Source: Candidatus Woesearchaeota archaeon (GTDB lineage Archaea; Nanobdellota; Nanobdellia; Pacearchaeales; GW2011-AR1). Taken from it: a DNA stretch of 64,000 nt. Positions within the stretch are counted from its first letter, which is position 1. The number at the start of each line of letters is the position of its first letter. The stretch spans positions 7,831 through 71,830 of the forward strand of contig CAZBPV010000003.1 in NCBI GenBank assembly GCA_964493885.1, given 5' to 3'. The notes under the pieces are model-generated. The model did no database searches, was not told where the DNA came from, and saw only the letters and a list, made by a program, of their open reading frames with translations. Positions 705 through 51,562 of the stretch are shown here, piece by piece. Made by a program: the position numbers and the translations under genes.

Positions 705-1184
705 ATGGATTTGCGGCTTCTTTATGCAATTCTTTTAACCATTGCCCCAGTAACAGAGCTTAGAATTGGGCTTCCATTAGCAATAAAATACTCTATTGAT
801 AATAATGTCCCATGGATTTTCTGCTTTTTATTAATTATATTTGTGAATATCTTACTTGTTTTTTTTGTTTTCCTTATATTAGATAGGGTTTATTTATTAT
901 TTAAACACTCAGAAATATATCAGAGATTTGTTTCAGCTTATATTAAAAAATTCAGAACAAGAATAAATAATTTTGAAAAAAAGCATAATCAAATAGGATT
1001 CTATGCTTTAATGCTGTTTGTGGCTGTTCCTTTTCCAGGGACAGGAGCTTGGAGTGGCTGCATACTCTCCTGGATTTTAGGATTGGATAGAAAGAAGAGT
1101 ACAATGGCAATTATTGCTGGTGTGATGATTGCAGGAATTTTAGTATTGCTTGCAAGCCTTGGGGTTATCTCCTTGTTTTCTTAA
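705..1184 (+). CDS. Small polytopic membrane protein, resembles the putative small multidrug-export family (PF06695-like)
   Basis: 159 aa with 4 predicted TM helices and an N-terminal TELRIGLP motif. Family assignment is from memory only. Confidence 0.4.
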   Translation: MDLRLLYAILLTIAPVTELRIGLPLAIKYSIDNNVPWIFCFLLIIFVNILLVFFVFLILDRVYLLFKHSEIYQRFVSAYIKKFRTRINNFEKKHNQIGFYALMLFVAVPFPGTGAWSGCILSWILGLDRKKSTMAIIAGVMIAGILVLLASLGVISLFS

Positions 1185-1701
1185 AGATAGATTTTTTATA
1201 CAAAGAGAGGATATCTGTATAAATTGGTATCTCCTTAATTTTGAATAATTTTGTTTCTAAAAACCAGATTAAAACTACAAAAAATGTACTAAGCAGATAC
1301 CAAAAGAGCTTGTGAGTTAAGTTAAATAAAAATGCTCCATAAAAAAGAAGAAGGATTAAAAATAGTATTCTAAGAATATTTGCAAATAATAATAATAATA
1401 AAAAAGAAAAAAGGAGCATATTAGCTCTTTTTTTTAAGCTTATGTTTGGGATAGATAGATTAAGGAAAAATAATAAATAATATGCAGAGCCAGCAACACA
1501 GGCTGGAATTATTTCTATGCTAAAGTCAGTAAATAAAAGAAAATTGCCAGTTAAAGTTACATCTGAGAAGATATTTAAGATAAAATAGAGAGTGTAAATA
1601 GTTAGAGGTGTAAAGATAAAATAAAATATATATAAATTTGGGAGTGCAACAAGCACTATTAGAAGATATCTAATTATTAGGCTTTTATATTCCTCTTTCA
1701 T
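1165..1701 (-). CDS. Candidate archaeosortase/exosortase-family (ArtE-like) membrane protein
   Basis: 178 aa polytopic membrane protein with Cys (IPACVAGS) about 43 aa upstream of an N-x-x-R motif (ANILRI); this is the same order and spacing as Cys173/Arg214 of ArtA. It lies adjacent to a secreted protein with a C-terminal TM plus basic tail. Confidence 0.35.
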   Translation of the reverse strand: MKEEYKSLIIRYLLIVLVALPNLYIFYFIFTPLTIYTLYFILNIFSDVTLTGNFLLFTDFSIEIIPACVAGSAYYLLFFLNLSIPNISLKKRANMLLFSFLLLLLFANILRILFLILLLFYGAFLFNLTHKLFWYLLSTFFVVLIWFLETKLFKIKEIPIYTDILSLYKKSIFKKTRR

Positions 1702-1817
1702 AAGAATGAATAGAAAATTACATTTAATTATTTTGAGGTTAGAATAATCCTAAAACAAAATCAAGTAATTCTTTTAAAATTGAATAGTATGCCATATTAA
1801 GAAATAAAGATTAAAAT

Positions 1818-3482
1818 TTATCTTCTAGTAACCTTAAGTGCTACAATAATTATAATTATAATAAGCACTATGTTTACAATTGCAATTCCCCAAAGATATG
1901 CATTATCTCCTAATAATCCAGAGAAGCTAAATCCTTGCTCTATTGTAACTGCAACTGGTTGTGTGATAGATTCTCCATCACTTGATGTTAATACAATATT
2001 AAGATTTTGATTTTCTTTAGCATCACTATCTACTTTTAGTGTTATCATAACATCCTTAGATTCATCTGAATTAAGAGTTAAGCTTGAAGGTTCAATGCTT
2101 ACTAATTCAGCCCAGCTTGAATAGTCAGATGCTGAAATAGTAAAAGTATCCTTTAAATCTGCGTTATTTGTAACTGTAGCCTTAATCTTTAATTCTTGTC
2201 CAGCTTTTCCACCAGATTCAAGACTAGCATAAACTACTGCATTTGGAACTCTGTTGCAATTTCCGCTTACATCTAGTGTTAAGTAGTACTGAGATTCATC
2301 ATTATCAGAATTTTCATAGATATCACCATCTTCATCATAAACTTCTAAATTAATAGAGTATTTTTTTTCCTGAGCATTTGAAGGAATTGTAAACTCAAAG
2401 TTAAGTTTCTTATCATCAAAAGCATCAATATCTCCAACTTCTGCTTTTTGATTTATTCCAAGTTCAGAGTTAGAAATTAATATATAAACATCTTCTTGGT
2501 CATCTTCTCCAATATTAAAGATATCTGCAGTAATCTGGATAGTATTCCCACATAAAGGTGTTCCAGTCACTTTAATATCATTAAGTACAACATAATCATC
2601 TTCAACAATAATAGAAACTTTCTCTGTTTTATAGATGCAAGTTTCTGAATCACTAGCATCATCTACATCTCCAGTAGCTCTAACATATAATATGTAATCC
2701 CCATCTTCAAGTTCATCAAAATCAATATCTAAGTCATCGTATAAATCAAAAGTAAATGTTACTGTTTCCTCTTCTCCATCATTTAAATTAAAATCTTCTT
2801 CTTCTTGCATCTCAATAACCCATTCATCAGTCTCTTCACTCCAAAGCCCCCATTCAACAACTACATTATCTATATCATCATCTCCATCATTTTCAACAAT
2901 AACTTCAACTTCAATCTCATCAGCAGGGTACCACTCATCATCTTGTCCAATGCCATTATTATTTACATTATCTATTTTTAATTTAAGATCTCCAGGATTT
3001 GAGACATTTGTATCTCTTTCAAATCCACAGAAGTTAAATTCATCTGAGCTTGAATTTGAAGATACAACAATTGAAACTGGGACAGTATAATTAGTAGCAA
3101 TTGTGTAAGTTCCTTCAAAAGTTAAATTTCCTGTGTAAGTTCCTGTAGCTTGTGCTGAAGGGATAACAACTTCCAAAGTAATGCTGTCATTGTCTAATCC
3201 TTCTAAATAATCTGGAACTCCAACAAGACTTAGATTTGAAGCAGCTAAAGTATTTGAACCTGAAGTAAGAGCTACTATATAACTAGTAATTGCAGTCATA
3301 TTTTGAGTAGCAGTATTATTAATTACAAAGTTAATGCTAATTGTTGTTCCTTGATTTCCACTTCCACTTAAGGAAGCTGGGTTAAAATTCATTGCCGCAC
3401 TAGCAAATCCAAGGCTAACAAATAGAATTGTTGCAAAGATACATAACAAACCGAATGTTTTTGCTTTCATTTTCATTGTCAC
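1818..3482 (-). CDS. Secreted, highly acidic cell-surface protein (S-layer/adhesin-like) with C-terminal TM anchor and basic tail
   Basis: N-terminal signal peptide (MKAKTFGLLCIFATILFVSLGFASA), long Asp/Glu-rich beta-rich domains, and a C-terminus GFSFSGLLG...IVLIIIIIIVALKVTRR (motif, TM, RR). Confidence 0.75.
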   Translation of the reverse strand: MTMKMKAKTFGLLCIFATILFVSLGFASAAMNFNPASLSGSGNQGTTISINFVINNTATQNMTAITSYIVALTSGSNTLAASNLSLVGVPDYLEGLDNDSITLEVVIPSAQATGTYTGNLTFEGTYTIATNYTVPVSIVVSSNSSSDEFNFCGFERDTNVSNPGDLKLKIDNVNNNGIGQDDEWYPADEIEVEVIVENDGDDDIDNVVVEWGLWSEETDEWVIEMQEEEDFNLNDGEEETVTFTFDLYDDLDIDFDELEDGDYILYVRATGDVDDASDSETCIYKTEKVSIIVEDDYVVLNDIKVTGTPLCGNTIQITADIFNIGEDDQEDVYILISNSELGINQKAEVGDIDAFDDKKLNFEFTIPSNAQEKKYSINLEVYDEDGDIYENSDNDESQYYLTLDVSGNCNRVPNAVVYASLESGGKAGQELKIKATVTNNADLKDTFTISASDYSSWAELVSIEPSSLTLNSDESKDVMITLKVDSDAKENQNLNIVLTSSDGESITQPVAVTIEQGFSFSGLLGDNAYLWGIAIVNIVLIIIIIIVALKVTRR

Positions 3483-3586
3483 TTCAGAGTTACTATGGTT
3501 TATAAACTTTTCTGTATTATAAAATATAACTAATTTTTGGTGGTTTCAAAAGATTTATATAGAAAAAAGGATATGTTTTATTATCG

Positions 3587-3979
3587 GTGGAAAAGATGTT
3601 AAAATCACATGAAAATTCTGTTGGTGCATGGGCTTTTCTTATTGGAGTAATTCTTGCATTAGTAATAGGGCTTTTTACTACATTGCTTCCTATCCCAGCA
3701 CTGATTAAATATAGTGCATATATTTACGGGATTCTTGTTTTACTTGGAATAGTTGTTGGAATAATGATAGTAAGAGGAAAAGACTCTCAAACAGTTCTTA
3801 TTGCTGGATTAATAATAGTGATTGTTAGTCAATTTGGAAAACAAAGTGTTAGTGGTTCACTAATTGGAATTGGATTAGATGATATGGTTAGTTCAATATT
3901 TACATCATTGCTAGCCTTATTTGTTCCAGCAACAATAATAATAGCACTAAAAACAGTATTTTCAATTGCTAAGGTTTGA
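3587..3979 (+). CDS. Hypothetical membrane protein (4 TM)
   Basis: 130 aa, hydrophobic throughout, no recognised motif. Confidence 0.5.
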   Translation: MEKMLKSHENSVGAWAFLIGVILALVIGLFTTLLPIPALIKYSAYIYGILVLLGIVVGIMIVRGKDSQTVLIAGLIIVIVSQFGKQSVSGSLIGIGLDDMVSSIFTSLLALFVPATIIIALKTVFSIAKV

Positions 3980-4170
3980 ATCTAATTTATCTATATTAAT
4001 AATAGATGGGTCATCCATATCTAATCTAAGCTAAAACTTATCAGTTTTGCAATAGTTTATCTATATTAATTACACTGCTATCCATATCTAATCTAAGCTA
4101 AAACTTATTAGTTTTGCAATAGTTTATCTATATTAATTACACTGCTATCCATATCTAATCTAGGGCAGGC
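3980..4170. repeat. Tandem direct repeat, about 67-bp unit x about 2.7 copies
   Basis: The unit tatccatatctaatctaagctaaaacttatcagttttgcaatagtttatctatattaattacactgc occurs at 4011-4078 and 4079-4145 (1-2 mismatches). There is a partial copy at 4146-4170 and a fragment at 3980-4010. Confidence 0.9.
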
Positions 4171-4719
4171 TGTATTCACCCAAGAACTTAAGCCAAAATT
4201 CTCAAATTCTTGCCTATTTATATTATTAGATAAGAAAAGATAGGATTTCTTATTGCATTTTTTAGCAAACTCAAGAGCTGTTTTTATTTTATTCTGCCCA
4301 GACTTTGTTGATATAATTATTCCTATTTTATTAGAATTAAGAAATTTTAAATAAGCAGCTTTTTGTTTTTTTTCTATAATTTCTACATCAGTCTTTGATA
4401 TTTTATCTAGACTATCTCTATTTAATATAAACACAGGTAATTTTGTTTTATATGCTAAGGAAATTGCATGAAATTTTCCTGAACCAACCAAAAGTATTGC
4501 ATTTGCATTTTCAGGAATATTTGGATTAGAACAGCCTAAAACCTGGATAAACTTAACTATATTGTGTGATTTAAGAATAGTTTTAATTTCTTCTGCTATT
4601 TTCTTAAATTGTATAGAGTAAGCAATAATTAAATTCTTAGGGAGCTGTTTAGATAACTCAAGTATCTTTGATTTATTTACTTTTAAATTAGATTTTGCTT
4701 CAATGTATAGTGTTTTCAT
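4108..4719 (-). CDS. Diphthamide synthase Dph2-family-like protein (short, possibly truncated)
   Basis: 203 aa with VGSGKFH and WVNTACPRL motifs reminiscent of PF01866. The last 17 codons and the stop lie inside the tandem repeat. Confidence 0.45.
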   Translation of the reverse strand: MKTLYIEAKSNLKVNKSKILELSKQLPKNLIIAYSIQFKKIAEEIKTILKSHNIVKFIQVLGCSNPNIPENANAILLVGSGKFHAISLAYKTKLPVFILNRDSLDKISKTDVEIIEKKQKAAYLKFLNSNKIGIIISTKSGQNKIKTALEFAKKCNKKSYLFLSNNINRQEFENFGLSSWVNTACPRLDMDSSVINIDKLLQN

Positions 4720-4740: not shown

Positions 4741-5136
4741 TTAATAAAACTTGTCTTCAAATTCTTTTTTTGGCTGTTCTGTTGCAACATGCTTTTCAAT
4801 CTTAGCAAAAGAAGGGGTAATAATAACAATATTCTCGTGTCCTGCAATATTTCCTTCAAGAGCATCAACAGTCTTTTTTATTTTAGAAATTGCTCTTTTG
4901 AGTTCAATAGGATCTTTTTGTTTTAAAATCCTAAAGTCAACTATTGCAATAGTATAACCTTCTCTTAAAGAATTAAGAATATTATTAACATCATCGTATT
5001 GTTTAAGAACAAAAACCTTAACAAGAACCTTATTTTCTTTTGCTTCTTTTTCTAAATCAATCTCCAAGTAATCCTCTCCAACAGGCTCACTTTTGAATGT
5101 GTTTGAAAATGCCTCTCTTATCCTTTTAAAAACCAT
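4741..5136 (-). CDS. sepF: Archaeal SepF-like cell-division protein (DUF552)
   Basis: 131 aa with an N-terminal amphipathic segment and a C-terminal SepF-like core (VLVKVFVLKQYDD...YTIAIVDFR). FtsZ is encoded in the same window. Confidence 0.65.
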   Translation of the reverse strand: MVFKRIREAFSNTFKSEPVGEDYLEIDLEKEAKENKVLVKVFVLKQYDDVNNILNSLREGYTIAIVDFRILKQKDPIELKRAISKIKKTVDALEGNIAGHENIVIITPSFAKIEKHVATEQPKKEFEDKFY

Positions 5137-5895: not shown

Positions 5896-5968
5896 TGGGG
5901 CTGCCCGGATTTGAACCGGGGTCGTCAGGTCCCAAACCTGAAAGGCTACCAGGCTACCCCACAGCCCC
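5896..5968 (-). tRNA. tRNA-Pro (anticodon UGG)
   Basis: GC-rich 73-nt cloverleaf on the minus strand: acceptor GGGGCUG/CAGCCCC, anticodon loop UU-UGG-GA, T-loop GGTTCAAATCC, discriminator A, no encoded CCA. Confidence 0.85.
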
Positions 5969-7256: not shown

Positions 7257-8615
7257 TGGGTTTATAAGGATTTCGGAAAAAGAGAGTGTTAGATATTAGG
7301 GAGTTATCATCGTTTTCTCCTCTCCTGTTAAGTTGCGGGAGTTTTTTAGTTTTATTGAATTTAATAGCATAGTCTCCCACTTGTTACCTTGAACTCCAAT
7401 ACCACATTTATCTGCGGGTGTTAATCCTTGTCTTGAGTTTTTTCTCACGAAATTATGGAATACCTTAAAGCCATCTTGATAAGTCTGAACTTCTTTTACT
7501 CCTCTCCTTATCTTATGAAATTCTTTTTGTTGTGTGTGATGACTCTCTATTGCGTTATTATTCACTTCTTTTCTATGTCCTTTAATTGATGTAAATTTAA
7601 CCTTTCTCTCATTACCCCAATTTCTAAATGTCTTTCTGCAACCATCTTCATAACCTTTGTAGCCATCTACGATTATCTGAAATGGAATTTTTCCATTCTG
7701 CTTTAATGCCTCTGTAAAAACGTGCTGTGCATCTTTACTTTTTCTACTTCTGCCTGAACATTCAGAGGCAAGAAGAAATTTACTTTTGTTATCCATAACA
7801 TTCCAGACATAATCAAATTCAGTATTCGGATTTTTCTTGTCTTTTCCTCTCTTTGTTAAAATTAAAGTTTCGTCTGCGTTCCAAACTCCTTTAATTTTTG
7901 GTTGGATTGTTTCGCTGTATTTTTCCATTACTTCTGAAAATCTTAAAACCCATTCTCTTATAGTTACGTGAGAAATATTTAAGTTGTAAAATTGCTGGAA
8001 TTGGTGGCTTATATCTCTATAAGATAGCCCTCTATAATAACAATCCATAGCCAAACAGATAAGTTTAGCGTTTCCTTTAAGGTATTTGATTGGCTCTAAA
8101 ACAAATCTTTTATGACAATCCTTACATTCATACCTTTGTTTATCTCCTATTTGAGTTTTCCTTATTCCACTTTTTACTAAGTTTTCAGAATTACAAAAAG
8201 GGCATAACTCTTTTTGTGGCTTATCTACAATTAATTCTATTTCTTTTCTTATTGGGCTTTCTTCTACTTCATAAGCATTTTTCAGCTTTTCAAATAAGAT
8301 TATAGCTTTAATGTGTTTGCAGTATAAACCTTGTCCTTTACATCTTAATTCAAAATCCTTACAATTACAGGAATAACTATCAAAATGAGTAACTTGATAT
8401 TTCTTACTACTATCAAATTGAGATGGAACTAAATAAGTATTTTCGTCTAAACATTCAGGGTTTCCTATTTGTAAAATAGCTTTTGCTCTTTCTTCTCTGT
8501 TGTCTGCGAATTGTTTAATGTCGTTTGTTGTTTCCATTTTATATTAGTTAATACCTAATTATATTAAGGAATAGCTAATATATAAACCTTTCGGTTTTAA
8601 GGGAAAGGGTTTATA
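7257..8615 (-). mobile_element. IS6-family insertion sequence (boundaries approximate)
   Basis: Contains the IS26-like transposase below. Short GGTTTATA repeats lie near both ends (7259 and 8578/8607, one inverted); exact IRs and target-site duplication are unresolved. Confidence 0.5.
7296..8537 (-). CDS. IS6-family DDE transposase with N-terminal SWIM zinc finger and CxxC zinc ribbon
   Basis: The C-terminal 240 aa align motif-by-motif with IS26 Tnp (SYRD..HVTIREWVLRFSEVMEK, WNADET, IIVDGYKGY, NNAIESHH). The N-terminus has CNCKDF...CKH (SWIM) and CPFC...CKDC. Confidence 0.85.
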   Translation of the reverse strand: METTNDIKQFADNREERAKAILQIGNPECLDENTYLVPSQFDSSKKYQVTHFDSYSCNCKDFELRCKGQGLYCKHIKAIILFEKLKNAYEVEESPIRKEIELIVDKPQKELCPFCNSENLVKSGIRKTQIGDKQRYECKDCHKRFVLEPIKYLKGNAKLICLAMDCYYRGLSYRDISHQFQQFYNLNISHVTIREWVLRFSEVMEKYSETIQPKIKGVWNADETLILTKRGKDKKNPNTEFDYVWNVMDNKSKFLLASECSGRSRKSKDAQHVFTEALKQNGKIPFQIIVDGYKGYEDGCRKTFRNWGNERKVKFTSIKGHRKEVNNNAIESHHTQQKEFHKIRRGVKEVQTYQDGFKVFHNFVRKNSRQGLTPADKCGIGVQGNKWETMLLNSIKLKNSRNLTGEEKTMITP

Positions 8616-10729: not shown

Positions 10730-13408
10730 TTAATATTTTTCTATAATATCTTGCTCTGTTTTTGTTATTCCATATAGACTATATATTTCTTCATTAATTT
10801 CATAATCTACATTCTTAATCTGTTGTTCTGAATTTTCTTTGCATAGTTTCATCATTCTTTCTACTAACTCTTTTATTTTATTTGCCTGTTTTTGTTCTGG
10901 GATTTTGACAGGCAGTAATTTTAAGTAAGGAATATCAAATCTGATATACCCCCCTGCCATATGCGTTGTTTCAAACTTCATCTTATAATAATAATTAATC
11001 AGTTTAGAGTTAATAATCGCTAACAACACTTCAAATAAACCTTCATCTTTGGGGATTAGAATAGATGATTTTCCAATATAATAACCCTCATCGTCAATAG
11101 TCGCCTGAACGCCCTTGGTTACCCTCGCTATAACAATTTTTCTTTTTTTGAATAGCTCTTTTAATTTATCAGAATATATTTTATTCTCAATATATTCCTT
11201 TTTCCAATCTATGCTATATCTTTTTATATCCCTTGTCTGAATCATAGGAGAGTATTTTTTGTCGTTTTGCTTATCTTCTCCTTTGTGCGTGGCAAAACCA
11301 GTAATAGACGAACCCCATACAAAAGTTTCCTGATAATCTTTTAGTTTTTCACACCCCTCTAATTTAGAAATAATCTCTTTATTTTCTGAAGTAGAACTTA
11401 TCATAAAATTTAATTTATTATCTTGTCTAAATTCTTCCTGTTCAATCTCATTCAGTTTTAAATTAGGAACTATATCTTTTTCATCTTCAATAATCGCCAC
11501 ACCTAATTTATTATTTTTGATTAGCCCTTTTTTGAATATAGTTATAACTGGATATGTAGAAGCGTCTTTGAAAATTCTTAAATGAGAAACATCAACTATT
11601 TTCTTTAATGAAGTTTCTTTTAACATTAACTCTCTCAAAGCAAAAGCATTTTCAGTTGATAAGTAAGTGTTAGGATTAATAAATCCAAACATCCCGCCCT
11701 CTTTTAACAATCTTATAGACTTCTCAATAAACAACTGAAATAAATTGTATTTTACAACCTTGCCATTAACATTTGAAGATTCATAATTTTTATTAAAATA
11801 TTCTGTGCCTTTTATGTTAGAATAATCTACATATGGCGGATTTCCGATAACAATATCAAAACCACCTTCCTTTATTGAGGGAAATTGAGCGTTCCAATTA
11901 AATGCCTTTTCATAATTAGAATCAGAAATTAAGCTATTCCCATTTTTGATATTATCTTTCATAGTAGGCAAAACTCTTTTTCTTGTTTCTCTTGTTTCTT
12001 CTTCTAAAATCTTTAATAATAAATTAAGCTGTGCAAGTTCCACAGCTTTCTCATCTAAATCTACTCCATAAATACAATTTGTTAGAATAGTTGCTTTTTG
12101 ACTTATATTTAATCTCTCGTTATATGAATTAAAACTATTCCACTTCTTTGATTTTTCGCCTTTATTTAATTTTTCTTCTATAACATTACATAATTCTTGA
12201 AATGCCCTAATCAAGAAAGAGCCAGAGCCACAGGCACAATCTAAAACTTTTACCTCTAAAATCTCATCTATTGATTTATTCTTAACATACTCTCCGAGAG
12301 TATTTTTTACTATATAATCCACAATATAAGAAGGGGTATAGTAAATTCCCATACTTTTTCTTTTTCCACTTAACAAATCTAACTTAACTCGCTTTTCTGT
12401 TCCTCTTAAAACCACTCCTAAATACTGCTCATAAATACTGCCTAATAAGTCAATAGGAATCTCATCAAACATATATCTCTCTTGATGTTCTTGCGTTCCA
12501 TAATATAATCCTTTTATAACTTTAATGATATTTTTATCATCAAAAAATCCTTCTTTTTCTAACAACCCATCAAAAAAGAGTTTAGAGTTATACTCCTTAT
12601 CAAATATTCTAAATTGAATTTTTAATAATGCCCAAAGAGTTTTATCAGTTCTGCCTTGCTGAACATCATCTATCTTTTTTAGTAAAAAGTCTTTTTCTTC
12701 TAATCCTCTATCTTCAACAGAACGCATAAAAATTAATCTATCAATTAGAATCTGAACAATCTCATCAATTTGAGAATCAGTTAAATAAGTTCTTTTATCC
12801 TTTAAGTCCTTTGAAAGCCACTCTCTATACTGAAGTAAATCGGTTAATATTGCTTCATCAATCGGTTTAATTAACTTCTTGTCTACATTTTTAAGAAGTT
12901 TATCAATTTCATCTTTTTCAAAACTCTCTCTTGATAATAACCATAGTCTATCAAACTGCTCAATAAAATTCTCACAATCTATCCAGAAATAACCCTTATC
13001 ATCTTTCAATAAGTTTTTATCTATATTCTTGATATTAGATAATGCGTGATAAACTCTTATTTGTTTAAAATTAGTTAATACAGAAAACTTTATGTTTTTA
13101 TGGTGTGCATAAGAAACAGCCTGTCTTCCTTCTTTTTCTTCAAGTTTAATATCTGTTGCTTTTGCTTCTATCACTAACTTTTGCTGGTTTCCAATCCTTA
13201 ATATATAATCTGCTCTTCCTTTCAATACCCTTTCTTCTTTATTAATATCTTCTAATTCCCAACCCAACGCCTTTAGTAATGGCTCAATAAATCTAAATTT
13301 TATTTGTTCTTCTTTCATTCCATCAAGTTCACTTTTAGGAATAGCTAAGAATTTATTTACTATCTTTCCTACCTCTTGTTTTGCTGTTTCCTTATCCATA
13401 GAAATCAC
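10730..13408 (-). CDS. Type IIG (MmeI-like) single-chain restriction-modification enzyme: PD-(D/E)XK nuclease + gamma-class N6-adenine methyltransferase + TRD
   Basis: The N-terminus has D67...E81-A-K83 (GRADYILRIGNQQKLVIEAKA), compared with MmeI D70/E80/K82. MTase motif I is VLDCACGSGSFL and motif IV is GNPPYV; a C-terminal TRD-like region follows. Confidence 0.85.
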   Translation of the reverse strand: MISMDKETAKQEVGKIVNKFLAIPKSELDGMKEEQIKFRFIEPLLKALGWELEDINKEERVLKGRADYILRIGNQQKLVIEAKATDIKLEEKEGRQAVSYAHHKNIKFSVLTNFKQIRVYHALSNIKNIDKNLLKDDKGYFWIDCENFIEQFDRLWLLSRESFEKDEIDKLLKNVDKKLIKPIDEAILTDLLQYREWLSKDLKDKRTYLTDSQIDEIVQILIDRLIFMRSVEDRGLEEKDFLLKKIDDVQQGRTDKTLWALLKIQFRIFDKEYNSKLFFDGLLEKEGFFDDKNIIKVIKGLYYGTQEHQERYMFDEIPIDLLGSIYEQYLGVVLRGTEKRVKLDLLSGKRKSMGIYYTPSYIVDYIVKNTLGEYVKNKSIDEILEVKVLDCACGSGSFLIRAFQELCNVIEEKLNKGEKSKKWNSFNSYNERLNISQKATILTNCIYGVDLDEKAVELAQLNLLLKILEEETRETRKRVLPTMKDNIKNGNSLISDSNYEKAFNWNAQFPSIKEGGFDIVIGNPPYVDYSNIKGTEYFNKNYESSNVNGKVVKYNLFQLFIEKSIRLLKEGGMFGFINPNTYLSTENAFALRELMLKETSLKKIVDVSHLRIFKDASTYPVITIFKKGLIKNNKLGVAIIEDEKDIVPNLKLNEIEQEEFRQDNKLNFMISSTSENKEIISKLEGCEKLKDYQETFVWGSSITGFATHKGEDKQNDKKYSPMIQTRDIKRYSIDWKKEYIENKIYSDKLKELFKKRKIVIARVTKGVQATIDDEGYYIGKSSILIPKDEGLFEVLLAIINSKLINYYYKMKFETTHMAGGYIRFDIPYLKLLPVKIPEQKQANKIKELVERMMKLCKENSEQQIKNVDYEINEEIYSLYGITKTEQDIIEKY

Positions 13409-13754: not shown

Positions 13755-14858
13755 TTATTCAAAGAAATCTATCCCAAGTTCTTCTTCTATTTCTTTATGC
13801 CTCATAACTTCTATAGGATCTCCCTGTCCTAAAATCTGAGAACTTTTGACTCCAGTAACAATTAGTAATACTCTAATAGATTTGTCCATGTCTGGAGCAA
13901 TTTGAGCCCCCCAAATCATCTTTGCATCTGGGCTTAATTTTTCTCCTATATGTTCAATTATTTCCTTGCATTCATCAAGGCTCATATTATTTCCTCCGAC
14001 AATATTTATCAAAGCTCCTGTTGCATTGGATATGTCTACATCTAACAAAGGATTATGCATGGCTTTTGTAACTGCATCAATTGCTCTCTGTTCTGTATCT
14101 GACTCTCCCATACCTATCAAGGAAACCCCTCCATTAACCATTACAGCTTTAATATCTGCAAAATCAAGATTAACTAAGCCAGAGGTTGTTACAAGCTCTG
14201 TAACTCCTTTTACAGCATTTGTAAGAATTTCATCAGAAATTTTAAATGCAGTGTGCAATGGGAGTTCTGGAGCAAGTTCTAAAAGCTTATCATTAGGTAT
14301 TACTATAAGAGTGTCAACATTTGCTTCTAATTTTTCTAATCCTTCCATAGCGTTTTCAATTCTCTTCCTTCCTTCTATAGTAAAAGGGAGAGTAACAACT
14401 CCTATAGTCAAAGAACCTTGTTTTTTTGAAATTCTTGCTATTTCAGGGGCAGCTCCTGTACCAGTCCCTCCTCCTAAACCGCAAGTAATAAAGACCATAT
14501 CTGCTCCAGAGATTTTCTTTTTTATCTCAGATTCTGATTCTTTTGCAGCTTCTTCACCAATTTTAGGGTTGCTGCCTGCACCTAATCCCTGAGTTAGTTC
14601 TTTTCCAATCAGTATTTTTTGGTCAGCATTAGCATATAACAAATCCTGAGCATCAGTATTAATTGCTATAAGCTCTCCTCCTTTTATTCCAATCTCCTTC
14701 ATTCTGCTTAAAGAGTTATTTCCTCCTCCTCCAACCCCAACTACTTTAATTTTTGCAGATTGTTTTTTTAATAACTCTTCAAGTTCTCTATCTATTTCTC
14801 TTACTTCTTCAGAAATGTTGTATGAAACATCCGCGCTTTGACTATAAGTTATACTCAT
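13755..14858 (-). CDS. ftsZ: Cell division GTPase FtsZ
   Basis: GGGTGTG tubulin signature (GLGGGTGTGAAP) and NTD/T7 loop, 367 aa. Confidence 0.95.
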   Translation of the reverse strand: MSITYSQSADVSYNISEEVREIDRELEELLKKQSAKIKVVGVGGGGNNSLSRMKEIGIKGGELIAINTDAQDLLYANADQKILIGKELTQGLGAGSNPKIGEEAAKESESEIKKKISGADMVFITCGLGGGTGTGAAPEIARISKKQGSLTIGVVTLPFTIEGRKRIENAMEGLEKLEANVDTLIVIPNDKLLELAPELPLHTAFKISDEILTNAVKGVTELVTTSGLVNLDFADIKAVMVNGGVSLIGMGESDTEQRAIDAVTKAMHNPLLDVDISNATGALINIVGGNNMSLDECKEIIEHIGEKLSPDAKMIWGAQIAPDMDKSIRVLLIVTGVKSSQILGQGDPIEVMRHKEIEEELGIDFFE

Positions 14859-24580: not shown

Positions 24581-24707
24581 CGCCCCCGCCAGGAATCGAA
24601 CCTGGGAGCCCAAAGGGCCCGGTTCTCTTGTTTGACAAAAACTTGACGAGCAAGTTTAAGGCTTGCCTTAACTCAAGACCGGTGCAATACCACTATGCGA
24701 CGGAGGC
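24581..24707 (-). tRNA. tRNA-Ser (anticodon UGA) with about 47-nt intron at canonical position 37/38
   Basis: Acceptor GCCUCCG/CGGGGGC, 3-bp D-stem, anticodon stem CCGGU/ACCGG with loop CU-UGA-G|intron|A, long variable arm GCCCUUUGGGCUC, T-arm CCAGGTTCGATTCCTGG. The intron spans about 24625-24671 and the mature tRNA is 80 nt. Confidence 0.7.
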
Positions 24708-28613: not shown

Positions 28614-29555
28614 ATGGCAAAAATAAGTGCGCCGAGAAAAGGAAGCCTGCAATACTGGCCGAGAAAGAGAGCGAGTAAAATCTTACCTAGTGTAAACTGG
28701 GGCACAATTTCTTCTAAAAAACCTCTAAAGGGTTTTATATGCTATAAATGCGGGATGGCTACTGCTATTACAAAGGATAATACTCCTGATTCAATGACTA
28801 AAGGAAAAGAGATTGCTATGCCAATAACAATTCTTGAATGCCCTACAATGAAGATTCTTTCAGTTAGATTTTATAAAAACGGGATTACAATGAAAGATAT
28901 TGTCTCTGATAATTTAGATAAAGAACTTAAAAGGGTAATTAAAATTCCAAAAAAAGCAGGCAAAAAAATAGAGGATATAAAGCCAGAAGATTATGATGAT
29001 GTTACTATAATTGCATATTCTCAACCTAAAAAAACAGGAGTAAAAAAAACTCCGGACATAATTGAAATTGGTTTACAAGGAAGTAAGGAAGAAAAAATTA
29101 AATTTATTAAAGAAAACTTATCTAAAGAATTATCTGTATTAGATTTTTTTGAAAAGGGGGGGTTAGTAGATTTAAGAGGAGTTACTAAGGGAAGAGGTTT
29201 TCAAGGTCCTGTAAAGAGATTTGGAATTAAATTGAGGCACCATAAGTCTGAAAAAGGAGTTAGAAAAGTTGGAAGCATTGGCCCGTGGCATCCTTCCAGA
29301 GTAACATTCAGAGTTCCGATGGCAGGACAGACTGGAATGAACACAAGAATTGTATATAATAATAAGATACTTGAAATTGGAAAATCCCAAGGGAAATTCA
29401 AGAATATCAGCAATTATGGAAATGTTCAAGCAGACTATATGCTTATTAGAGGTTCTGTTCTAGGCCCTGCAAAAAGACAATTAGTTTTAAATAGCTCTGC
29501 AAGACCTACTAAAAAACAATTAAAAAAATCTTTTGAAATTATTAAAATAATATGA
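28614..29555 (+). CDS. rpl3: Ribosomal protein L3 (uL3)
   Basis: N-terminus MAK..PRKGSLQYWPRKRA and first position of the conserved cluster. Confidence 0.9.
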   Translation: MAKISAPRKGSLQYWPRKRASKILPSVNWGTISSKKPLKGFICYKCGMATAITKDNTPDSMTKGKEIAMPITILECPTMKILSVRFYKNGITMKDIVSDNLDKELKRVIKIPKKAGKKIEDIKPEDYDDVTIIAYSQPKKTGVKKTPDIIEIGLQGSKEEKIKFIKENLSKELSVLDFFEKGGLVDLRGVTKGRGFQGPVKRFGIKLRHHKSEKGVRKVGSIGPWHPSRVTFRVPMAGQTGMNTRIVYNNKILEIGKSQGKFKNISNYGNVQADYMLIRGSVLGPAKRQLVLNSSARPTKKQLKKSFEIIKII

Positions 29556-29607
29556 AAGCAAATATAAAATTTTCATTCATCCAGATTAAACATAGAGGAA
29601 AATCAGA

Positions 29608-30402
29608 ATGAAAGCCAAAATACTAGAGATAAATGGAAAGGAAAAAGGAACAATTGAACTTCCTAGTTGCTTTTCTAGCAATATAAGGGAAGACATTGTA
29701 TCTAAGATTGTTGAAGCTAAAAAAAGAGAACAACCTTATTCTCCGTCTCCAATGGCTGGGAAACAACATGCAGCTAAAGGAAAAGTAGTCCATAGAAGAC
29801 ATGTTTGGAGAAGTGGTTATGGAAGAGGTATGTCAAGAGTTCCTAGAAAAATATTTTCTCAAAAAGGTTCACAATTTAATTGGGAGGCAGCAGAAGTTCC
29901 ATTTGCAAGAGGTGGAAGAAGAGCTCATCCTCCAAAGATTATCGCAAGAATGAATCCTCTAAAAATAAATAAAAAAGAGATGAGAATAGGTTTACAATCT
30001 GCATTAAGTGCTACGGCAAATCAAACAGAAATGTCAAAGAGATATGAAAGATTAAAAGACAAAAAAATAGAAAAATTGCCATTTGTTGCAGAATCAAAAA
30101 TAACTTCATTAAAATTTAAGGAATTACTTTCAGGATTAAAAAATATTCTTGGGGGATTATTTGAGCTAGCAATAAAAAAGAAAAAAGTAAGAAGTGGTAA
30201 GGGGAAATTAAGAGGAAGAAAATACAAAAGCAATGCTGGTTTACTTATTGTTATAGGAAATGATGAAAAAATGAATACAAGCAGATTTGATGTTAAAAAA
30301 GCAAAAGATGTTAATATTTTAGATTTAGCTAGAGGGGGATTAGGGAGATTAACACTTTATACTGAAAAAGCAATTAAAAATCTTGGAGAAAGATGCAAAT
30401 GA
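29608..30402 (+). CDS. rpl4: Ribosomal protein L4 (uL4, L1e)
   Basis: Family match and cluster position. Confidence 0.9.
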   Translation: MKAKILEINGKEKGTIELPSCFSSNIREDIVSKIVEAKKREQPYSPSPMAGKQHAAKGKVVHRRHVWRSGYGRGMSRVPRKIFSQKGSQFNWEAAEVPFARGGRRAHPPKIIARMNPLKINKKEMRIGLQSALSATANQTEMSKRYERLKDKKIEKLPFVAESKITSLKFKELLSGLKNILGGLFELAIKKKKVRSGKGKLRGRKYKSNAGLLIVIGNDEKMNTSRFDVKKAKDVNILDLARGGLGRLTLYTEKAIKNLGERCK

Positions 30403-30653
30403 AAAAAACAATTACATTGAGGCCATTAATAACTGAAAAAGCAGTAATGCTTATTGAAAGTAATAATGTCTTGACATTTGAGACTGAAAAAGAAAGAAAC
30501 AAAGACGAAATAAAAAAAGAAGTTGAAAGTACATTGAGTGTGAAGGTGGATAAAATTCAAACTCTTATTAAAGACAATAAAAAATATGCTTATGTTAAAT
30601 TAAAAAAAGAATTTCCAGCAATGGATCTTGCTACAAAATTAGGGATGATATAA
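30393..30653 (+). CDS. rpl23: Ribosomal protein L23 (uL23)
   Basis: 86 aa, family match and cluster position. Confidence 0.9.
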   Translation: MQMKKTITLRPLITEKAVMLIESNNVLTFETEKERNKDEIKKEVESTLSVKVDKIQTLIKDNKKYAYVKLKKEFPAMDLATKLGMI

Positions 30654-30654
30654 A

Positions 30655-31353
30655 ATGGGAAAAAGGATAATCCAACAAAGACGAGGAAGAGGAAGCAACA
30701 CTTATAGAGTTAGAAGGCAAGCATTCAGATATAAAATTAGATATCCAAGGGAATTATCTGGAGAAGGAGTTGTTATTAAATTGTTAAATTCTCCAGCTCA
30801 TACTTCTCCATTAGCAAAAATAAAATATAACAAAGGAGTATTTTACATTCCTGCATTTAAAGGAATGATAGAAGGGCAGAAAGTTAGTTTTGGGGGAAAA
30901 GAAATTAAGGAAGGAAATATTCTTCAATTAAAAGATATTCCAATGAAAACACGAATTTATAATATTGAATCACGACCAGGAGACGGAGGAATTTTTATCA
31001 GAACTGGGGGAAATTGTGCTGAAATAAGCAAGATTATAGAGAATGATGTATTTGTATTGCTTCCTTCAAAAAAAGAAAGAAAATTTAATCCTGGATGCAG
31101 AGCTACTATCGGAGAGATTGCAGGCTCTGGAAGATTAAAAAAACCAATAATCAAAGCTGGAAAAATGCACTATATGATGAGAGCTAAAAATAGATTATGG
31201 CCGAGAACATCTGCAGTTAAGATGAATGTTGTTGATCATCCGTTTGGCTCAGGTAGAGGTAAGAGAATTAAGTCAAAAATTGCTAAGAGAAATGCTCCTG
31301 CTGGAAGAAAGGTAGGACTAATAAGACCGCAAAGAACAGGTAAAAGGAAATAA
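30655..31353 (+). CDS. rpl2: Ribosomal protein L2 (uL2)
   Basis: MGKRIIQQRRGRGS N-terminus and conserved C-terminal GGRKVG region. Confidence 0.95.
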   Translation: MGKRIIQQRRGRGSNTYRVRRQAFRYKIRYPRELSGEGVVIKLLNSPAHTSPLAKIKYNKGVFYIPAFKGMIEGQKVSFGGKEIKEGNILQLKDIPMKTRIYNIESRPGDGGIFIRTGGNCAEISKIIENDVFVLLPSKKERKFNPGCRATIGEIAGSGRLKKPIIKAGKMHYMMRAKNRLWPRTSAVKMNVVDHPFGSGRGKRIKSKIAKRNAPAGRKVGLIRPQRTGKRK

Positions 31354-31354
31354 A

Positions 31355-31756
31355 ATGGCAGAAATAATAACAAAAAAACAATTTTTATATAGGGGAAAAT
31401 CACTGGAAGAACTTCAGGCAATGGAGGTTAGAGAGTTTGCTAAACTCTTAAAATCTCGAAGAAAAAGAAATGTCTTAAGACAATTCCAGAAAATTGAGGA
31501 TTTTATAAACAGGGCTAAGATAAAACTCTCAAAGAATAAGCCAATAAAAACTCATCAAAGGGATTTAACAATTGTTCCTCAGATGATTGGGATGAGAATA
31601 GGTACTTATAATGGCAGAGAATTTGTTCCAGTAGATGTTGTGGCTGAGATGCTGGGGCATGTATTAGGAGAATTTTCAAACACAAGAAGTAAAGTAAAAC
31701 ACGGTGCTGCAGGTGTTGGATCTACTAAAGGTACAAAATCTCAGTCTAAACACTAG
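31355..31756 (+). CDS. rps19: Ribosomal protein S19 (uS19)
   Basis: NGREFVPVDVVAEMLGHVLGEFSNTR signature. Confidence 0.9.
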   Translation: MAEIITKKQFLYRGKSLEELQAMEVREFAKLLKSRRKRNVLRQFQKIEDFINRAKIKLSKNKPIKTHQRDLTIVPQMIGMRIGTYNGREFVPVDVVAEMLGHVLGEFSNTRSKVKHGAAGVGSTKGTKSQSKH

Positions 31757-31760
31757 AAAC

Positions 31761-32399
31761 ATGACAGAAAAAAACTACAATCCAGAACAAAGAACAATGA
31801 AAAAAGTAGGAATAATTGGAAAAAAGAAAAAGGAAAAGGCTCCAAAAAAGCAAAAGGCAGAGATAAAAGAAATCAAACAACCAGAGCAGGAGATAAAAAA
31901 ACAATCTGAGATGAATGTTGAAACAAAAGCACTGGAAAAAACAGAACAACCTAAGGAAGAAAAGAAAAAAGAAACCCCAAAACCAGTAATTAAAAAAAGT
32001 GAAGCCACTGTAAATGCTACTTCATTACCTATTTCAACAAAAGTATCTTCAGCTATATGTAAATTTATCAAGGGAAAAACAATAGAGGATGCAATTAAAG
32101 ATTTAGAGTTAGTTATAAAAAAGAAAAAAGTTCTTCCAATGACTGGGGAAATTCCTCATAGAAAAGGAAAAGGAATAATGTCTGGGGGATACCCGCAAAA
32201 TGCATCTAAAGAATTTATAATTTTATTAAAAGGGCTTGCAGGTAATGCGAATGTAAATGGAATAGAAGAGCCAGTAATAGTTGAAGCAGTTCCAAACATG
32301 GCAGCCAGGCCTATGGGTTCATTTGGGAGAGTAAGAAGAAAAAGAACTCATGTAAAATTAGTAGCTAAAGAAAAAATGGAGATAAAGAAAAATGGATGA
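31761..32399 (+). CDS. rpl22: Ribosomal protein L22 (uL22) with about 70-aa Lys/Glu-rich N-terminal extension
   Basis: The C-terminal 140 aa match uL22. Start chosen at the Met after the S19 stop; the track ORF starts at 31704 and overlaps S19. Confidence 0.85.
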   Translation: MTEKNYNPEQRTMKKVGIIGKKKKEKAPKKQKAEIKEIKQPEQEIKKQSEMNVETKALEKTEQPKEEKKKETPKPVIKKSEATVNATSLPISTKVSSAICKFIKGKTIEDAIKDLELVIKKKKVLPMTGEIPHRKGKGIMSGGYPQNASKEFIILLKGLAGNANVNGIEEPVIVEAVPNMAARPMGSFGRVRRKRTHVKLVAKEKMEIKKNG

Positions 32400-33090
32400 A
32401 AGAAAGATAATTGGGTTTAAAAAAGATGAATTTGCAATAAAAGAATATATTAAAGAATCACTTGGAAAAGGAAAAGTTAGTAAGGTAAACATCTCTTATA
32501 CTCCAATCGGAGAAAAAATAACTGTTTCAACTCACAAACCAGGGTTAGTTATTGGGAGAAAAGGGGAGAGGATAGAAGAGCTTACTAGAGTATTAAAGAC
32601 GCGGTTTAAACTTGAAAATCCACATATTGAAATTGATGAAATTAAAAAGCCTGAATTTGATGCTCAACTAATGGCAGATGAAATTGCATTAGGACTTGAA
32701 AGATTGGGACCATTAAAATTTAAAGTTTTGGCATATAGGACTCTACAAAAGATAATGAATGCCGGAGCCCTAGGAACTGAAATAAGACTTCATGGGAAAC
32801 TCCCAAGTGCAAGAGCCAAGCAATGGAGATTTGCGCAAGGATACATAAAGAAAACAGGGGATGCTGCAAAAGTTGTTGACAGGGCCCAATCACGAGCAGA
32901 AACAAGGCCCGGGACTGTGGGAGTAAGGGTAGCAATCCTTTCTCCAGATGCAAAATTGATTGATAGAATAAATATAGATGAATCTATGATTAGCAAATTA
33001 AAATTAAATTCTGTTGAAGAAGAAATTGAAAAACCAAAGAAAAAAACTAGAAAAAAGACAGAAAAAAAGGTAGAAAATGATAAAGAATAA
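32392..33090 (+). CDS. rps3: Ribosomal protein S3 (uS3) with Lys-rich C-terminal tail
   Basis: KH domain (GLVIGRKGERI) and S3 C-domain. Confidence 0.9.
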   Translation: MDERKIIGFKKDEFAIKEYIKESLGKGKVSKVNISYTPIGEKITVSTHKPGLVIGRKGERIEELTRVLKTRFKLENPHIEIDEIKKPEFDAQLMADEIALGLERLGPLKFKVLAYRTLQKIMNAGALGTEIRLHGKLPSARAKQWRFAQGYIKKTGDAAKVVDRAQSRAETRPGTVGVRVAILSPDAKLIDRINIDESMISKLKLNSVEEEIEKPKKKTRKKTEKKVENDKE

Positions 33091-33283
33091 AGAAATAAAA
33101 AACATGAATAGAGAAGATAGAGAGAAAAAGTTAAAAGAACTAAAATTAGAATTAGTAAAAGCTAAAGTAACTGCTTCAAAAGCAGGAAGTTCAAAAGTAA
33201 AAGAAGTTAAAAGAACCATAGCAAAATTGCTTACATTCAACAAATCCGAAGATGAAAAATCAAAGGAGAAGTTGAACAAATAA
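33077..33283 (+). CDS. rpl29: Ribosomal protein L29 (uL29)
   Basis: 68 aa coiled-coil, cluster position. Confidence 0.85.
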   Translation: MIKNKEIKNMNREDREKKLKELKLELVKAKVTASKAGSSKVKEVKRTIAKLLTFNKSEDEKSKEKLNK

Positions 33284-33289
33284 ATACCT

Positions 33290-33589
33290 ATGGAAATAGA
33301 TCCAAAGACAGGATTGCCTATACAGGCAATTGAATGGGAAGACCTCGCGAAGAGTTCGCAAAAAATAAAGGTAACAACAGACAAGAAAAGATATGGAAAG
33401 ATTGTTACCATAGTGAGCGGGTTTGATAAAGGAATCGACATAAAAAAAACCGCTAAAGCTCTGAAAAATGAGCTTGCCTGTGGAGGAACCTCAAAAGATG
33501 GGGTAATAGAACTCCAAGGGGACCACAGAAAGAAAATCAAACCAACCCTGGTAAGGATTGGGTTTGATGAGAACTCAATAGAGGAATAA
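33290..33589 (+). CDS. sui1: Translation initiation factor SUI1 (aIF1)
   Basis: ACGGTSKDGVIELQGDHR signature. Confidence 0.9.
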   Translation: MEIDPKTGLPIQAIEWEDLAKSSQKIKVTTDKKRYGKIVTIVSGFDKGIDIKKTAKALKNELACGGTSKDGVIELQGDHRKKIKPTLVRIGFDENSIEE

Positions 33590-33609
33590 AACCTTTCAGA
33601 AAAAACAAA

Positions 33610-33948
33610 ATGACAAAGAAAAAAGAAAAAACAGAGAGTAAAATCCAAGAGGAAAAAATAGCTGGGGCTATAGAAGAAAAAAGAATTGGAACTCGAGGAA
33701 GAATCTTTGAGGGAAAAGTCATTAGAAAATTCCCTAAAAGAGTAACAATAGAATTTGAAAGAATGATTTATGTAAAAAAATATGAAAGATATGCTAAATC
33801 AAGAACAAAGATTCACGCAAGACTTCCTGAAATCCTGGAAAAAGAAATTAATCTTGGAGATTTAATACAGGTTCAAGAATGCAGACCATTAAGTAAAATA
33901 ATCCATTTTATAGTCACTAAAAAAATTAAAGAAGGGAGCATAAAATGA
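33610..33948 (+). CDS. rps17: Ribosomal protein S17 (uS17)
   Basis: OB-fold pattern with C-terminal ECRPLSK motif. Confidence 0.9.
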   Translation: MTKKKEKTESKIQEEKIAGAIEEKRIGTRGRIFEGKVIRKFPKRVTIEFERMIYVKKYERYAKSRTKIHARLPEILEKEINLGDLIQVQECRPLSKIIHFIVTKKIKEGSIK

Positions 33949-33966
33949 AGCAAAAAAATAAATTTT

Positions 33967-33987
33967 TAGCTCATTCGTCAACAGGAG
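33967..33987 (+). promoter_or_regulatory. Conserved element TAGCTCATTCGTC-N2-CAGGAG in the S17-L14 gap
   Basis: The identical 13-mer plus CAGGAG also occurs in the L5-S14 gap (36025-36046). An AT-rich TATA-like stretch lies 10 nt upstream, and the GGAG could serve as a Shine-Dalgarno. Confidence 0.3.
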
Positions 33988-33994
33988 TTGCCAA

Positions 33995-34396
33995 ATGAAG
34001 GCTATAAGTGCTAGAACAACTGGCGGAGTGAATTTAGGAGCTGAATTAGTAGTTGCCGACAATAGTGGAGCAAAGATAGCCAGGCTAGTGGCAGTAAAAA
34101 AATTCAAAGCTAAAAAAAGAAAGCAAGTAAATGGGAAAGTTGCTGACTGGATAAAAGTAAGTATAAGAAAAGGCAATCCTGAAATGAAAGGAAAAGTTTT
34201 TGATGCAGTAATAATAAGATTAAAGAAACCTTATAGAAGATTAAATGGGGAGAGAGTGGGTTTTGAAGACAATGCAGTGGCTATACTTAAAGATGATAAA
34301 GGAAATCCAAAAGGAACCCAGATTAAAGGGCCAGTAGCAAGGGAGGTTATGGAGCGTTGGCCATCAGTGGCTAAAATAGCTTCAATAATATATTAA
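33995..34396 (+). CDS. rpl14: Ribosomal protein L14 (uL14)
   Basis: Family match (ADNSGAK...). Confidence 0.95.
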   Translation: MKAISARTTGGVNLGAELVVADNSGAKIARLVAVKKFKAKKRKQVNGKVADWIKVSIRKGNPEMKGKVFDAVIIRLKKPYRRLNGERVGFEDNAVAILKDDKGNPKGTQIKGPVAREVMERWPSVAKIASIIY

Positions 34397-34397
34397 A

Positions 34398-35455: not shown

Positions 35456-35456
35456 A

Positions 35457-36005: not shown

Positions 36006-36024
36006 AACAAGAAATTAAAATTCC

Positions 36025-36046
36025 TAGCTCATTCGTCTTCCAGGAG
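36025..36046 (+). promoter_or_regulatory. Second copy of the TAGCTCATTCGTC-N2-CAGGAG element (L5-S14 gap)
   Basis: See 33967-33987. The conservation is at nucleotide level in different reading frames, so it is not a shared peptide. Confidence 0.3.
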
Positions 36047-36054
36047 GAATTCAA

Positions 36055-36285: not shown

Positions 36286-36286
36286 A

Positions 36287-36667: not shown

Positions 36668-36668
36668 A

Positions 36669-40169: not shown

Positions 40170-40177
40170 GAAGTAAA

Positions 40178-45222: not shown

Positions 45223-45260
45223 AAATAAAGCTTATAAATAGAAATTTGTTCTGATTTTAG

Positions 45261-47996: not shown

Positions 47997-48005
47997 AGAA
48001 ATCCA

Positions 48006-51530: not shown

Positions 51531-51562
51531 GAATTTATAAACAACAAAAAAATTAAGATAAG

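Follow-up and report, generated by a model that had tools for sequence, protein, structure and literature searches.

The only archaeosortase that has been characterized, ArtA of Haloferax volcanii, couples cleavage of its substrate to lipidation (PMC7157517) and provides the precedent for Cys-dependent cleavage and lipid anchoring of an S-layer glycoprotein (PMC9263693, PMC7157517). Residues Cys173, Arg214, and Arg253 of ArtA are essential, with Arg214 lying 41 residues after Cys173 (PMC9263693), and the 912-bp artA gene specifies a protein of about 300 amino acids (aa) (PMC7157517). In the Haloferax model, the resolving amine is archaetidylethanolamine (PMC9263693, PMC7157517). ArtA-encoding genomes carry from 1 to 52 PGF-CTERM proteins (PMC6098224). 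Here we analyzed 64,000 nucleotides (nt) of Candidatus Woesearchaeota archaeon (contig CAZBPV010000003.1, positions 7,831-71,830; hereafter the window), in which a pacearchaeosortase appears to be encoded beside a single dedicated substrate, a PACE-CTERM putative S-layer glycoprotein, that would be processed in an ArtA-like manner. From the sequences and the analogy to ArtA, we assign this reading a probability of roughly 0.85. The system itself is already catalogued: curated NCBIfam models exist for both partners, and NCBI names the exact substrate, calling an identical protein (P0121) "putative S-layer protein [Candidatus Nanoarchaeia archaeon]". Because the pair is curated and the name is attached to an identical protein, the system is not new, and the suggestion in an earlier note on this DNA that the C-terminal motif belongs to no described CTERM class does not hold.

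The two genes lie next to each other on the minus strand, where the earlier note had placed two open reading frames (ORFs), and all features of these genes given below are on that strand. The pacearchaeosortase gene (1165..1701) has an ATG start and encodes a small polytopic membrane protein of 178 aa with an isoelectric point (pI) of 9.6. The gene of the PACE-CTERM putative S-layer glycoprotein (1818..3482) encodes 554 aa from a GTG start; the NCBI version of this protein, 552 aa long, uses the ATG two codons further on (3474-3476).

The 178-aa protein scored 195.1 bits against the NCBIfam model NF033505 ("pacearchaeosortase"; cutoff 80, E 8.6e-58), with residues 7-171 aligned to profile positions 3-166 of 167, and 27.5 bits against TIGR04178 (exosortase/archaeosortase family protein; cutoff 23), with residues 62-148 aligned to profile positions 1-91 of 97. 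Both scores lie above their cutoffs, in agreement with the archaeosortase-like character that the earlier note had proposed to check with hidden Markov models (HMMs). The 554-aa protein scored 425.9 bits against NF033506 ("PACE-CTERM-PROT, putative S-layer protein"; cutoff 110, E 2.9e-127), and the best stretch of this match joins substrate residues 159-554 to profile positions 219-627 of 627. E-values of 8.6e-58 and 2.9e-127 exclude chance resemblance. By these profile matches, the 178-aa protein is a member of the exosortase/archaeosortase superfamily and of its pacearchaeosortase subfamily. A protein search found 940 sortase homologs, some of which are named pacearchaeosortase by NCBI, and precomputed PF09721 matches are present on some of the close homologs. 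Relatives of the sortase occur in 373 species-level genomes (the scan used one genome per species), nearly all of which are labeled Pacearchaeota, Woesearchaeota, or Nanoarchaeota (DPANN). The locus analysis took in the 80 loci returned from these 373 genomes.

The residues expected of such an enzyme are present and strictly kept. Conservation was assessed in an alignment of 36 sequences (A1) and subsequently in the full set of 120 homologs listed, out of the 940 found. The earlier note had recognized a Cys (in IPACVAGS) followed 43 residues later by an Arg (in ANILRI), which correspond to Cys68 and to Arg111 of the Asn108/Arg111 motif, and had made conservation of the Cys and Arg in homologs a test of its proposal. 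Cys68 and Arg111 are invariant in 120/120 listed homologs, as are Asn108 and His130, and the same holds for R11, Y12, G71, W134, W146, P159, and D163. Cys68, the predicted catalytic nucleophile, is encoded at 1498..1500 within the motif ACVAGSAYY, and Asn108-Arg111 (NILR), which ends in the predicted catalytic Arg, at 1369..1380. The codon of His130, the third invariant polar residue, is at 1312..1314; the residue falls within the TIGR04178 match (62-148) and, in the predicted topology, near the outer end of the last long transmembrane (TM) helix. By family membership, and not by a residue alignment, Cys68 would correspond to the essential Cys173 of ArtA.

Hydropathy of the sortase shows four hydrophobic blocks (about 7-42, 62-82, 92-133, and 130-153). 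An AlphaFold2 (AF2) model built from A1 is compact and all-helical, with a mean predicted local distance difference test (pLDDT) score of 83 and a predicted TM-score (pTM) of 0.74; its helices span residues 3-45, 70-82, 89-119, and 123-152 and are followed by a C-terminal amphipathic helix, and a short extracytoplasmic beta-hairpin is modeled at 49-63. The KKR loop at 89-92 would be cytoplasmic under the positive-inside rule, as would the basic C-terminus; this would place C68, R111, and H130 towards the outer helix ends. The invariant Asn108 (1378-1380) lies one helical turn before the predicted catalytic Arg111.

The partner has the signal peptide and the extremely acidic extracellular region that the earlier note had described. 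The signal sequence is of the Sec type (...SLGFASA followed by AMNF), the pI is 4.05, and Asp plus Glu (D+E) make up 18% of the protein overall and about 30% of residues 151-400. The signal peptide (residues 1-29; 3396..3482) begins with a basic N-terminus, continues as a hydrophobic helix at 6-24, and ends in an A-S-A site, after which cleavage would be expected by the AxA rule. An AF2 model built from the full-length substrate profile (A2) has a mean pLDDT of 87; in it, the signal helix is followed by four beta-sandwich domains and then by a flexible linker that leads to the C-terminal TM helix. The N-terminal beta-sandwich domain spans residues 30-141 (3060..3395; boundaries from the AF2 model). 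All 8 N-x-S/T sequons of the protein lie in residues 55-160, 7 of them in this domain and the eighth (N159) just past it. Two very acidic beta-sandwich domains follow (residues 166-291 and 298-404; 2271..2987), in which D+E are mostly 13-21 per 50 residues, and then a membrane-proximal immunoglobulin (Ig)-like domain, modeled by AF2 as a beta-sandwich (residues 415-513; 1944..2240). Weak Ig-like and fibronectin type III (Fn3)-like Pfam matches cover residues 426-508, and PF07705 CARDB and Fn3-like matches are found on homologs of the substrate. Cys152, Cys282, Cys311, and Cys409 (2256-3029) are invariant or nearly so in 42 homologs, which suggests that the extracellular part contains two structural disulfides. 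Such disulfides would be unusual for many archaeal surface proteins. The predicted architecture is compatible with an archaeal S-layer glycoprotein, without being proof of one.

The C-terminus of the substrate reads ...GFSFSGLLGDNAYLWGIAIVNIVLIIIIIIVALKVTRR (...IEQGFSFSGLLGDNAYLWGIAIVNIVLIIIIIIVALKVTRR). Per-column conservation of this tail was measured in the 42 substrate homologs. The tripartite plan of short motif, TM helix, and basic tail put forward in the earlier note stands in outline, but the motif does not sit where that note had placed it. Its candidate, GFSFSG (residues 517-522), is part of a variable Gly/Ser-rich linker (residues 514-526; 1905..1943), in which the consensus residue is found in 8-35/42 homologs, and in only 14-24/42 for GFSFSG itself. 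The pLDDT of the AF2 model is lowest in the linker (56 for residues 521-530). Its weak conservation and its position in this low-confidence linker led us to reject GFSFSG as the sorting motif.

The conserved part of the tail is a signature, N-x-Y-L-W-G-I-(G/A)-x-(L/V)-N, that runs into the TM helix (residues 527-549; 1836..1904). Counted in the 42 homologs, N527 is kept in 37, Y529 in 38, L530 in 33, W531 in 39, G532 in 30, and I533 in 39, and in the helix N537 is kept in 39, L540 in 40, I544 in 42, and A548 in 40. In the window, NAYLWGIAIVN is followed by a hydrophobic helix and KVTRR, where the family has N-x-Y-L-W-G-I-G-x-L-N, a hydrophobic helix, and R-V-A-R-K. AF2 models the tail helix at 528-553, so that the conserved residues stand at its start and inside it. 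Asn537 (1878-1880) is thus a polar residue inside the TM helix that is retained in 39/42 homologs, and we speculate that it could form an intramembrane recognition pair with Asn108 of the sortase. The protein ends in a basic cytoplasmic tail, K-V-T-R-R (residues 550-554; 1821..1835), in which R553 is kept in 37/42 homologs. The earlier note had remarked that both ORFs end in TRR. This is literally true, but the shared ending was rejected as meaningful: C-termini of homologs vary (KK, ARK, RRK, and so on), so the coincidence of TRR is fortuitous.

Tails that deviate from the signature also occur. Six loci (L013, L022, L062, L064, L065, and L067) have tails without YLWGIG and retain adjacency to a sortase gene. 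Those of L013, L022, and L062 read, for example, ...ILIALISAIVIAIIIVLIVKASRKK, and in each of L064 and L067, two S-layer paralogs stand in tandem and have long, Lys-rich extensions at their C-termini. Judged from these sequences, the tail motif seems to co-vary by clade. The contig of L013 (CAYRAD010000265.1) is labeled "uncultured Vicingus sp.", a bacterium; since it holds a typical DPANN sortase/S-layer pair, it is probably a binning contaminant in that metagenome-assembled genome.

The pairing of sortase and surface protein noticed in the earlier note extends far beyond the window, with an NF033506 member as the partner in synteny across DPANN genomes. With the full-length profile A2, a member of the S-layer family was found within 5 kb of the sortase gene in 76/80 loci, and upstream sequence is shorter than 500 nt in 3/4 of the loci where it was not found. 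A tail HMM built from the loci detected a single tail-bearing ORF in each of 70 loci, every one of these ORFs being a member of the S-layer family. In 69/70 loci, this ORF lies upstream of the sortase gene and shares its strand. In the window, the tail HMM gave 56.3 bits (E 2.7e-16) for the 554-aa protein, and regular-expression and tail-HMM scans of all window ORFs revealed no further tail-bearing ORF in the 64 kb.

The earlier note had proposed a search for other proteins with the same tail, which yielded homologs of the same family and no other protein family. Queried with the 46-residue tail, phmmer gave 65 matches at E <= 0.001 among 1.84 billion representative proteins. Fifty-nine of these were long enough to test, and in 55/59 the body is that of an S-layer-family protein. 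The short matches are truncated copies. The exceptions comprise P0247, a 165-aa protein with an unrelated body that is possibly a chimeric gene call, P0257, which has internal repeats and is probably spurious, and P0293, whose body is too short to judge. A multi-substrate model of the PGF-CTERM kind was rejected, as the tail occurs almost only on the S-layer family. Because the tail is almost confined to one protein family, we conclude from these sequence comparisons that the pacearchaeosortase and the S-layer protein are a dedicated single-substrate system.

Genes for the expected steps of envelope assembly are present in the same window. The SecY gene lies at 40178-41626, and glycosylation genes follow with a GT4-family glycosyltransferase (44224-45222), a 911-aa AglB/STT3 oligosaccharyltransferase (45261-47996), and a run of sugar-nucleotide, methyltransferase, and glycosyltransferase genes that extends to 63974. 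Together, SecY, AglB/STT3, and the glycosylation genes fit export followed by N-glycosylation of the sequon-rich N-terminal domain, and the cluster at 44224-63974 probably supplies the glycan for the eight sequons of the S-layer protein. The cluster includes a UDP-GlcNAc 2-epimerase, several S-adenosylmethionine-dependent methyltransferases (one of them a C-methyltransferase), and GT1 enzymes, and further holds a flippase-like protein, two nucleotidyltransferases, and enzymes of the RmlD and dehydratase types.

In 34/80 loci, a nearby gene encodes a membrane phosphatase of the PAP2 family (about 205 aa; PF01569, 71.6 bits), and in 29 of those 34 this gene sits between the S-layer and sortase genes on the opposite strand. 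Examples, all on the minus strand of their loci and assigned by PF01569, are L050:4335-4970, L017:4320-4958, and L001:4311-4934. A role for the phosphatase in dolichol-phosphate recycling, or a link to the lipid acceptor, is conceivable. The window contains no PAP2 homolog by tblastn (best E 0.6).

These findings suggest the following sequence of events, modeled on ArtA. The 554-aa precursor would be exported by Sec and its signal peptide removed, as indicated by the signal sequence and by SecY in the window, and the N-terminal domain would be N-glycosylated by AglB, given the 8 sequons and the AglB/STT3 cluster. The precursor would be held temporarily in the membrane by the C-terminal TM helix and basic tail, in keeping with the sequence and the AF2 model. 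By homology to ArtA, the sortase would then recognize YLWGIGxLN at the outer end of the substrate helix and cleave there, Cys68 would form a thioester acyl-enzyme, and the helix and basic tail would be released. If the analogy to ArtA, PssA, and PssD extends to the last steps, a membrane-lipid amine would resolve the intermediate, leaving the acidic four-domain protein covalently lipid-anchored as the cell surface layer.

Several observations weigh against this reading. The sortase has no Pfam match at E <= 1, a PDB sequence search found no solved relative, and Foldseek with the sortase model returned nothing at E <= 0.001. The searchable literature does not mention pacearchaeosortase or PACE-CTERM: in a 2018 review (PMC6098224) "archaeosortase" and "DPANN" occur in unrelated passages, and a Pacearchaeota metaproteomics paper (PMC11537232) has no mention of S-layer or sortase. 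The term "S-layer" is itself a database label marked "putative". Moreover, the PDB entries that Foldseek matched to the substrate model were all generic multi-Ig or macroglobulin-domain proteins (TM-scores of 0.15-0.29), with no specific link to a solved archaeal S-layer protein. On the enzyme side, the third invariant residue is His130, whereas the third essential residue of ArtA is Arg253. The lipid partners pose a further difficulty, since no CDP-alcohol phosphatidyltransferase or phosphatidylserine-decarboxylase domain, the kinds to be expected of PssA and PssD, was found in window ORFs of at least 150 aa. DPANN archaea are generally considered to lack lipid biosynthesis.

The putative status of the label and the generic fold matches, which include cadherins, ICAM, and macroglobulin domains, would also suit a sorted protein that is a host-attachment adhesin, or another abundant surface protein of an episymbiotic DPANN cell, and that forms no S-layer lattice. 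Adhesins, too, typically contain strings of Ig and CARDB domains, and variability is greatest in the N-terminal domain of the protein, the best stretch of NF033506 covering only 159-554. We nevertheless consider an adhesin unlikely, if the most durable of the alternatives. The protein is present at nearly one copy per locus and is conserved wherever the sortase occurs (76/80 loci), and it is acidic and bears sequons. Known archaeal S-layer glycoproteins are likewise acidic and carry glycosylation sequons. The main substrate of ArtA in Haloferax, moreover, is the S-layer glycoprotein (PMC9263693, PMC7157517).

It is also conceivable that the enzyme acts as a hydrolase only, clipping the TM anchor so that the surface protein is released or matured with no covalent lipid attached. 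The lack of PssA/PssD-type genes among window ORFs of at least 150 aa and a third conserved residue that is His rather than the second Arg of ArtA would fit such an activity, as would the size of the enzyme, which at 178 aa is far smaller than the about 300 aa of ArtA. We regard this as improbable, since an S-layer must be tethered to the membrane and removal of the sole TM helix would leave the mature protein without a tether; lipid-headgroup genes could sit elsewhere in the genome, and cleavage and lipidation are coupled in the only characterized archaeosortase (PMC7157517).

Finally, a permanent TM anchor, with the sortase homolog acting elsewhere or inactive and the adjacency mere synteny, would account for the tails of L013, L022, L062, L064, and L067, which lack YLWGIG yet occur beside a sortase gene, but is very hard to credit because the polar/aromatic signature, including the TM Asn, is under strong purifying selection (37-40/42) and the catalytic residues are invariant in 120/120 listed homologs, and it is further opposed by the pairing in 76/80 loci and by the lack of any other candidate substrate with such a tail in the window or among 1.84 billion representatives. 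We therefore retain the reading of a pacearchaeosortase that processes one dedicated surface-layer substrate. A bolder extension of it seems to us a long shot: a mechanistically distinct, minimal archaeosortase of ~170 aa, with Cys-Arg-His in place of Cys-Arg-Arg, would tether the sole S-layer glycoprotein of these lipid-synthesis-poor cells to a host-derived lipid, with Asn537 meeting Asn108/Arg111 in the membrane and the PAP2 neighbor preparing the acceptor lipid. Were the acceptor lipid host-derived, these cells would depend directly on their host for assembling the envelope.

The layout of the two genes suggests that they are transcribed separately. The substrate and sortase genes are divided by a spacer of 116 nt (1702..1817), read directly from the sequence. 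A T-rich stretch follows the substrate stop codon at 1799-1816 and may act as a terminator, and an A/T-rich, TATA-like element before the sortase ATG at 1722-1732 may act as a promoter; both are on the minus strand. Upstream of the substrate gene, 22 nt separate the end of the TATA-box-like TTTATAAA (3499..3506, minus strand) from the ATG at 3476, a spacing that would fit a leaderless or short-leader transcript from that ATG. The TATA-like TTTATAAA, the T-rich stretch in the spacer, and the second A/T-rich element together suggest that each gene has a promoter of its own, with strong expression of the substrate and weak expression of the enzyme.

The pair is flanked by genes for small membrane proteins. 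Divergent from the S-layer gene is a gene for an unassigned 130-aa small membrane protein (3587-3979, plus strand). On the other side, the gene at 705-1184 (plus strand) encodes a 159-aa small membrane protein of the PF06695 "small multidrug export" family, and its 3' end overlaps the 3' end of the convergent sortase gene by 20 nt. The homolog of a diphthamide-synthesis protein at 4108-4719 (minus strand) has only 203 aa, aligned to profile positions 64-274 of 302, and may be a short variant or truncated at its N-terminus. It is adjoined by SepF (4741-5136).

The window as a whole has a G+C content of ~30% and carries housekeeping genes, among them those of ribosomal proteins, an Spt5/L11 cluster, SepF, FtsZ (13755-14858), and SecY. 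A long ribosomal-protein operon (28614-41626, plus strand) runs from L3 to L15 and has SecY as its last gene; the strongest positive GC and AT skew of the window coincides with it. The sole tRNA called by both Rfam and ARAGORN is tRNA-Pro(TGG) at 5896-5968. An Rfam tRNA match of 127 nt at 24581-24707 (minus strand; 41.5 bits), which ARAGORN did not call, is probably an intron-containing archaeal tRNA. Next to the Spt5/L11 ribosomal gene cluster, a 413-aa ORF (7296-8537, minus strand) has a DDE transposase domain, with IS240/IS66-like matches, after a Cys-rich N-terminal half. Mobile elements are uncommon in such small genomes. An 892-aa fused restriction-modification enzyme of the Type IIG kind is encoded at 10730-13408 (minus strand), with an Eco57I/MmeI-type methylase, an N6_Mtase domain, a TaqI-like specificity domain, and an HSDR_N nuclease-like N-terminus.

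As a discovery the locus carries little weight, since the NCBI annotation pipeline already recognizes both genes. Its interest lies in the design, in which one enzyme serves one substrate in a lineage whose envelope and lipid supply are poorly understood. Few archaeosortase types are as small as the pacearchaeosortase, whose size is close to that of ArtD, ArtE, and XrtH. The small size, the single substrate, and the poorly understood lineage would together recommend the system as a minimal model in which archaeosortase recognition and the acceptor lipid could conveniently be studied.

Compared with ArtA, the enzyme of the window belongs to the same TIGR04178 superfamily and has a conserved Cys followed by an Arg, at 43 residues here and 41 in ArtA. 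The substrates share the order of motif, TM helix, and basic tail, the main substrate in each case is an acidic, glycosylated S-layer protein (putatively so in the window), and the placement of the signature parallels that of PGF at the helix edge in ArtA substrates. In contrast, the pacearchaeosortase has 178 aa rather than about 300, the tail in the window carries the YLWGIGxLN signature and no PGF, and there is one dedicated substrate instead of 1 to 52. The ArtA subfamily model did not match the 178-aa protein at E <= 1.

Of comparable size are ArtE, ArtD, and exosortase H (XrtH), which are likewise minimal (models of 150-158 positions) and give weak, near-full-length alignments. ArtE (TIGR04124) scored 24.7 bits against a cutoff of 95 (E 2e-05; profile positions 6-151 of 153), ArtD (TIGR04175) 10.2 against 125, and exosortase H (TIGR04177) 12.8 against 86. 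Scores this far below the cutoffs imply a sister subfamily rather than membership. The one-enzyme, one-substrate logic with adjacent genes is reportedly found also in the exosortase E/VPEID-CTERM system, which is bacterial and differs in its motif and in the family of its substrate. Classical LPXTG sortases stand further apart: the window enzyme has no sortase-domain Pfam match and the tail no LPXTG, and any resemblance is mechanistic and convergent only (PMC9263693). From the curated NF033505 and NF033506 pair, the window locus differs in nothing essential, its two genes being 116 nt apart with no PAP2 gene; it shares with that pair scores above both cutoffs, the same DPANN range, the gene adjacency, and the names given by NCBI.

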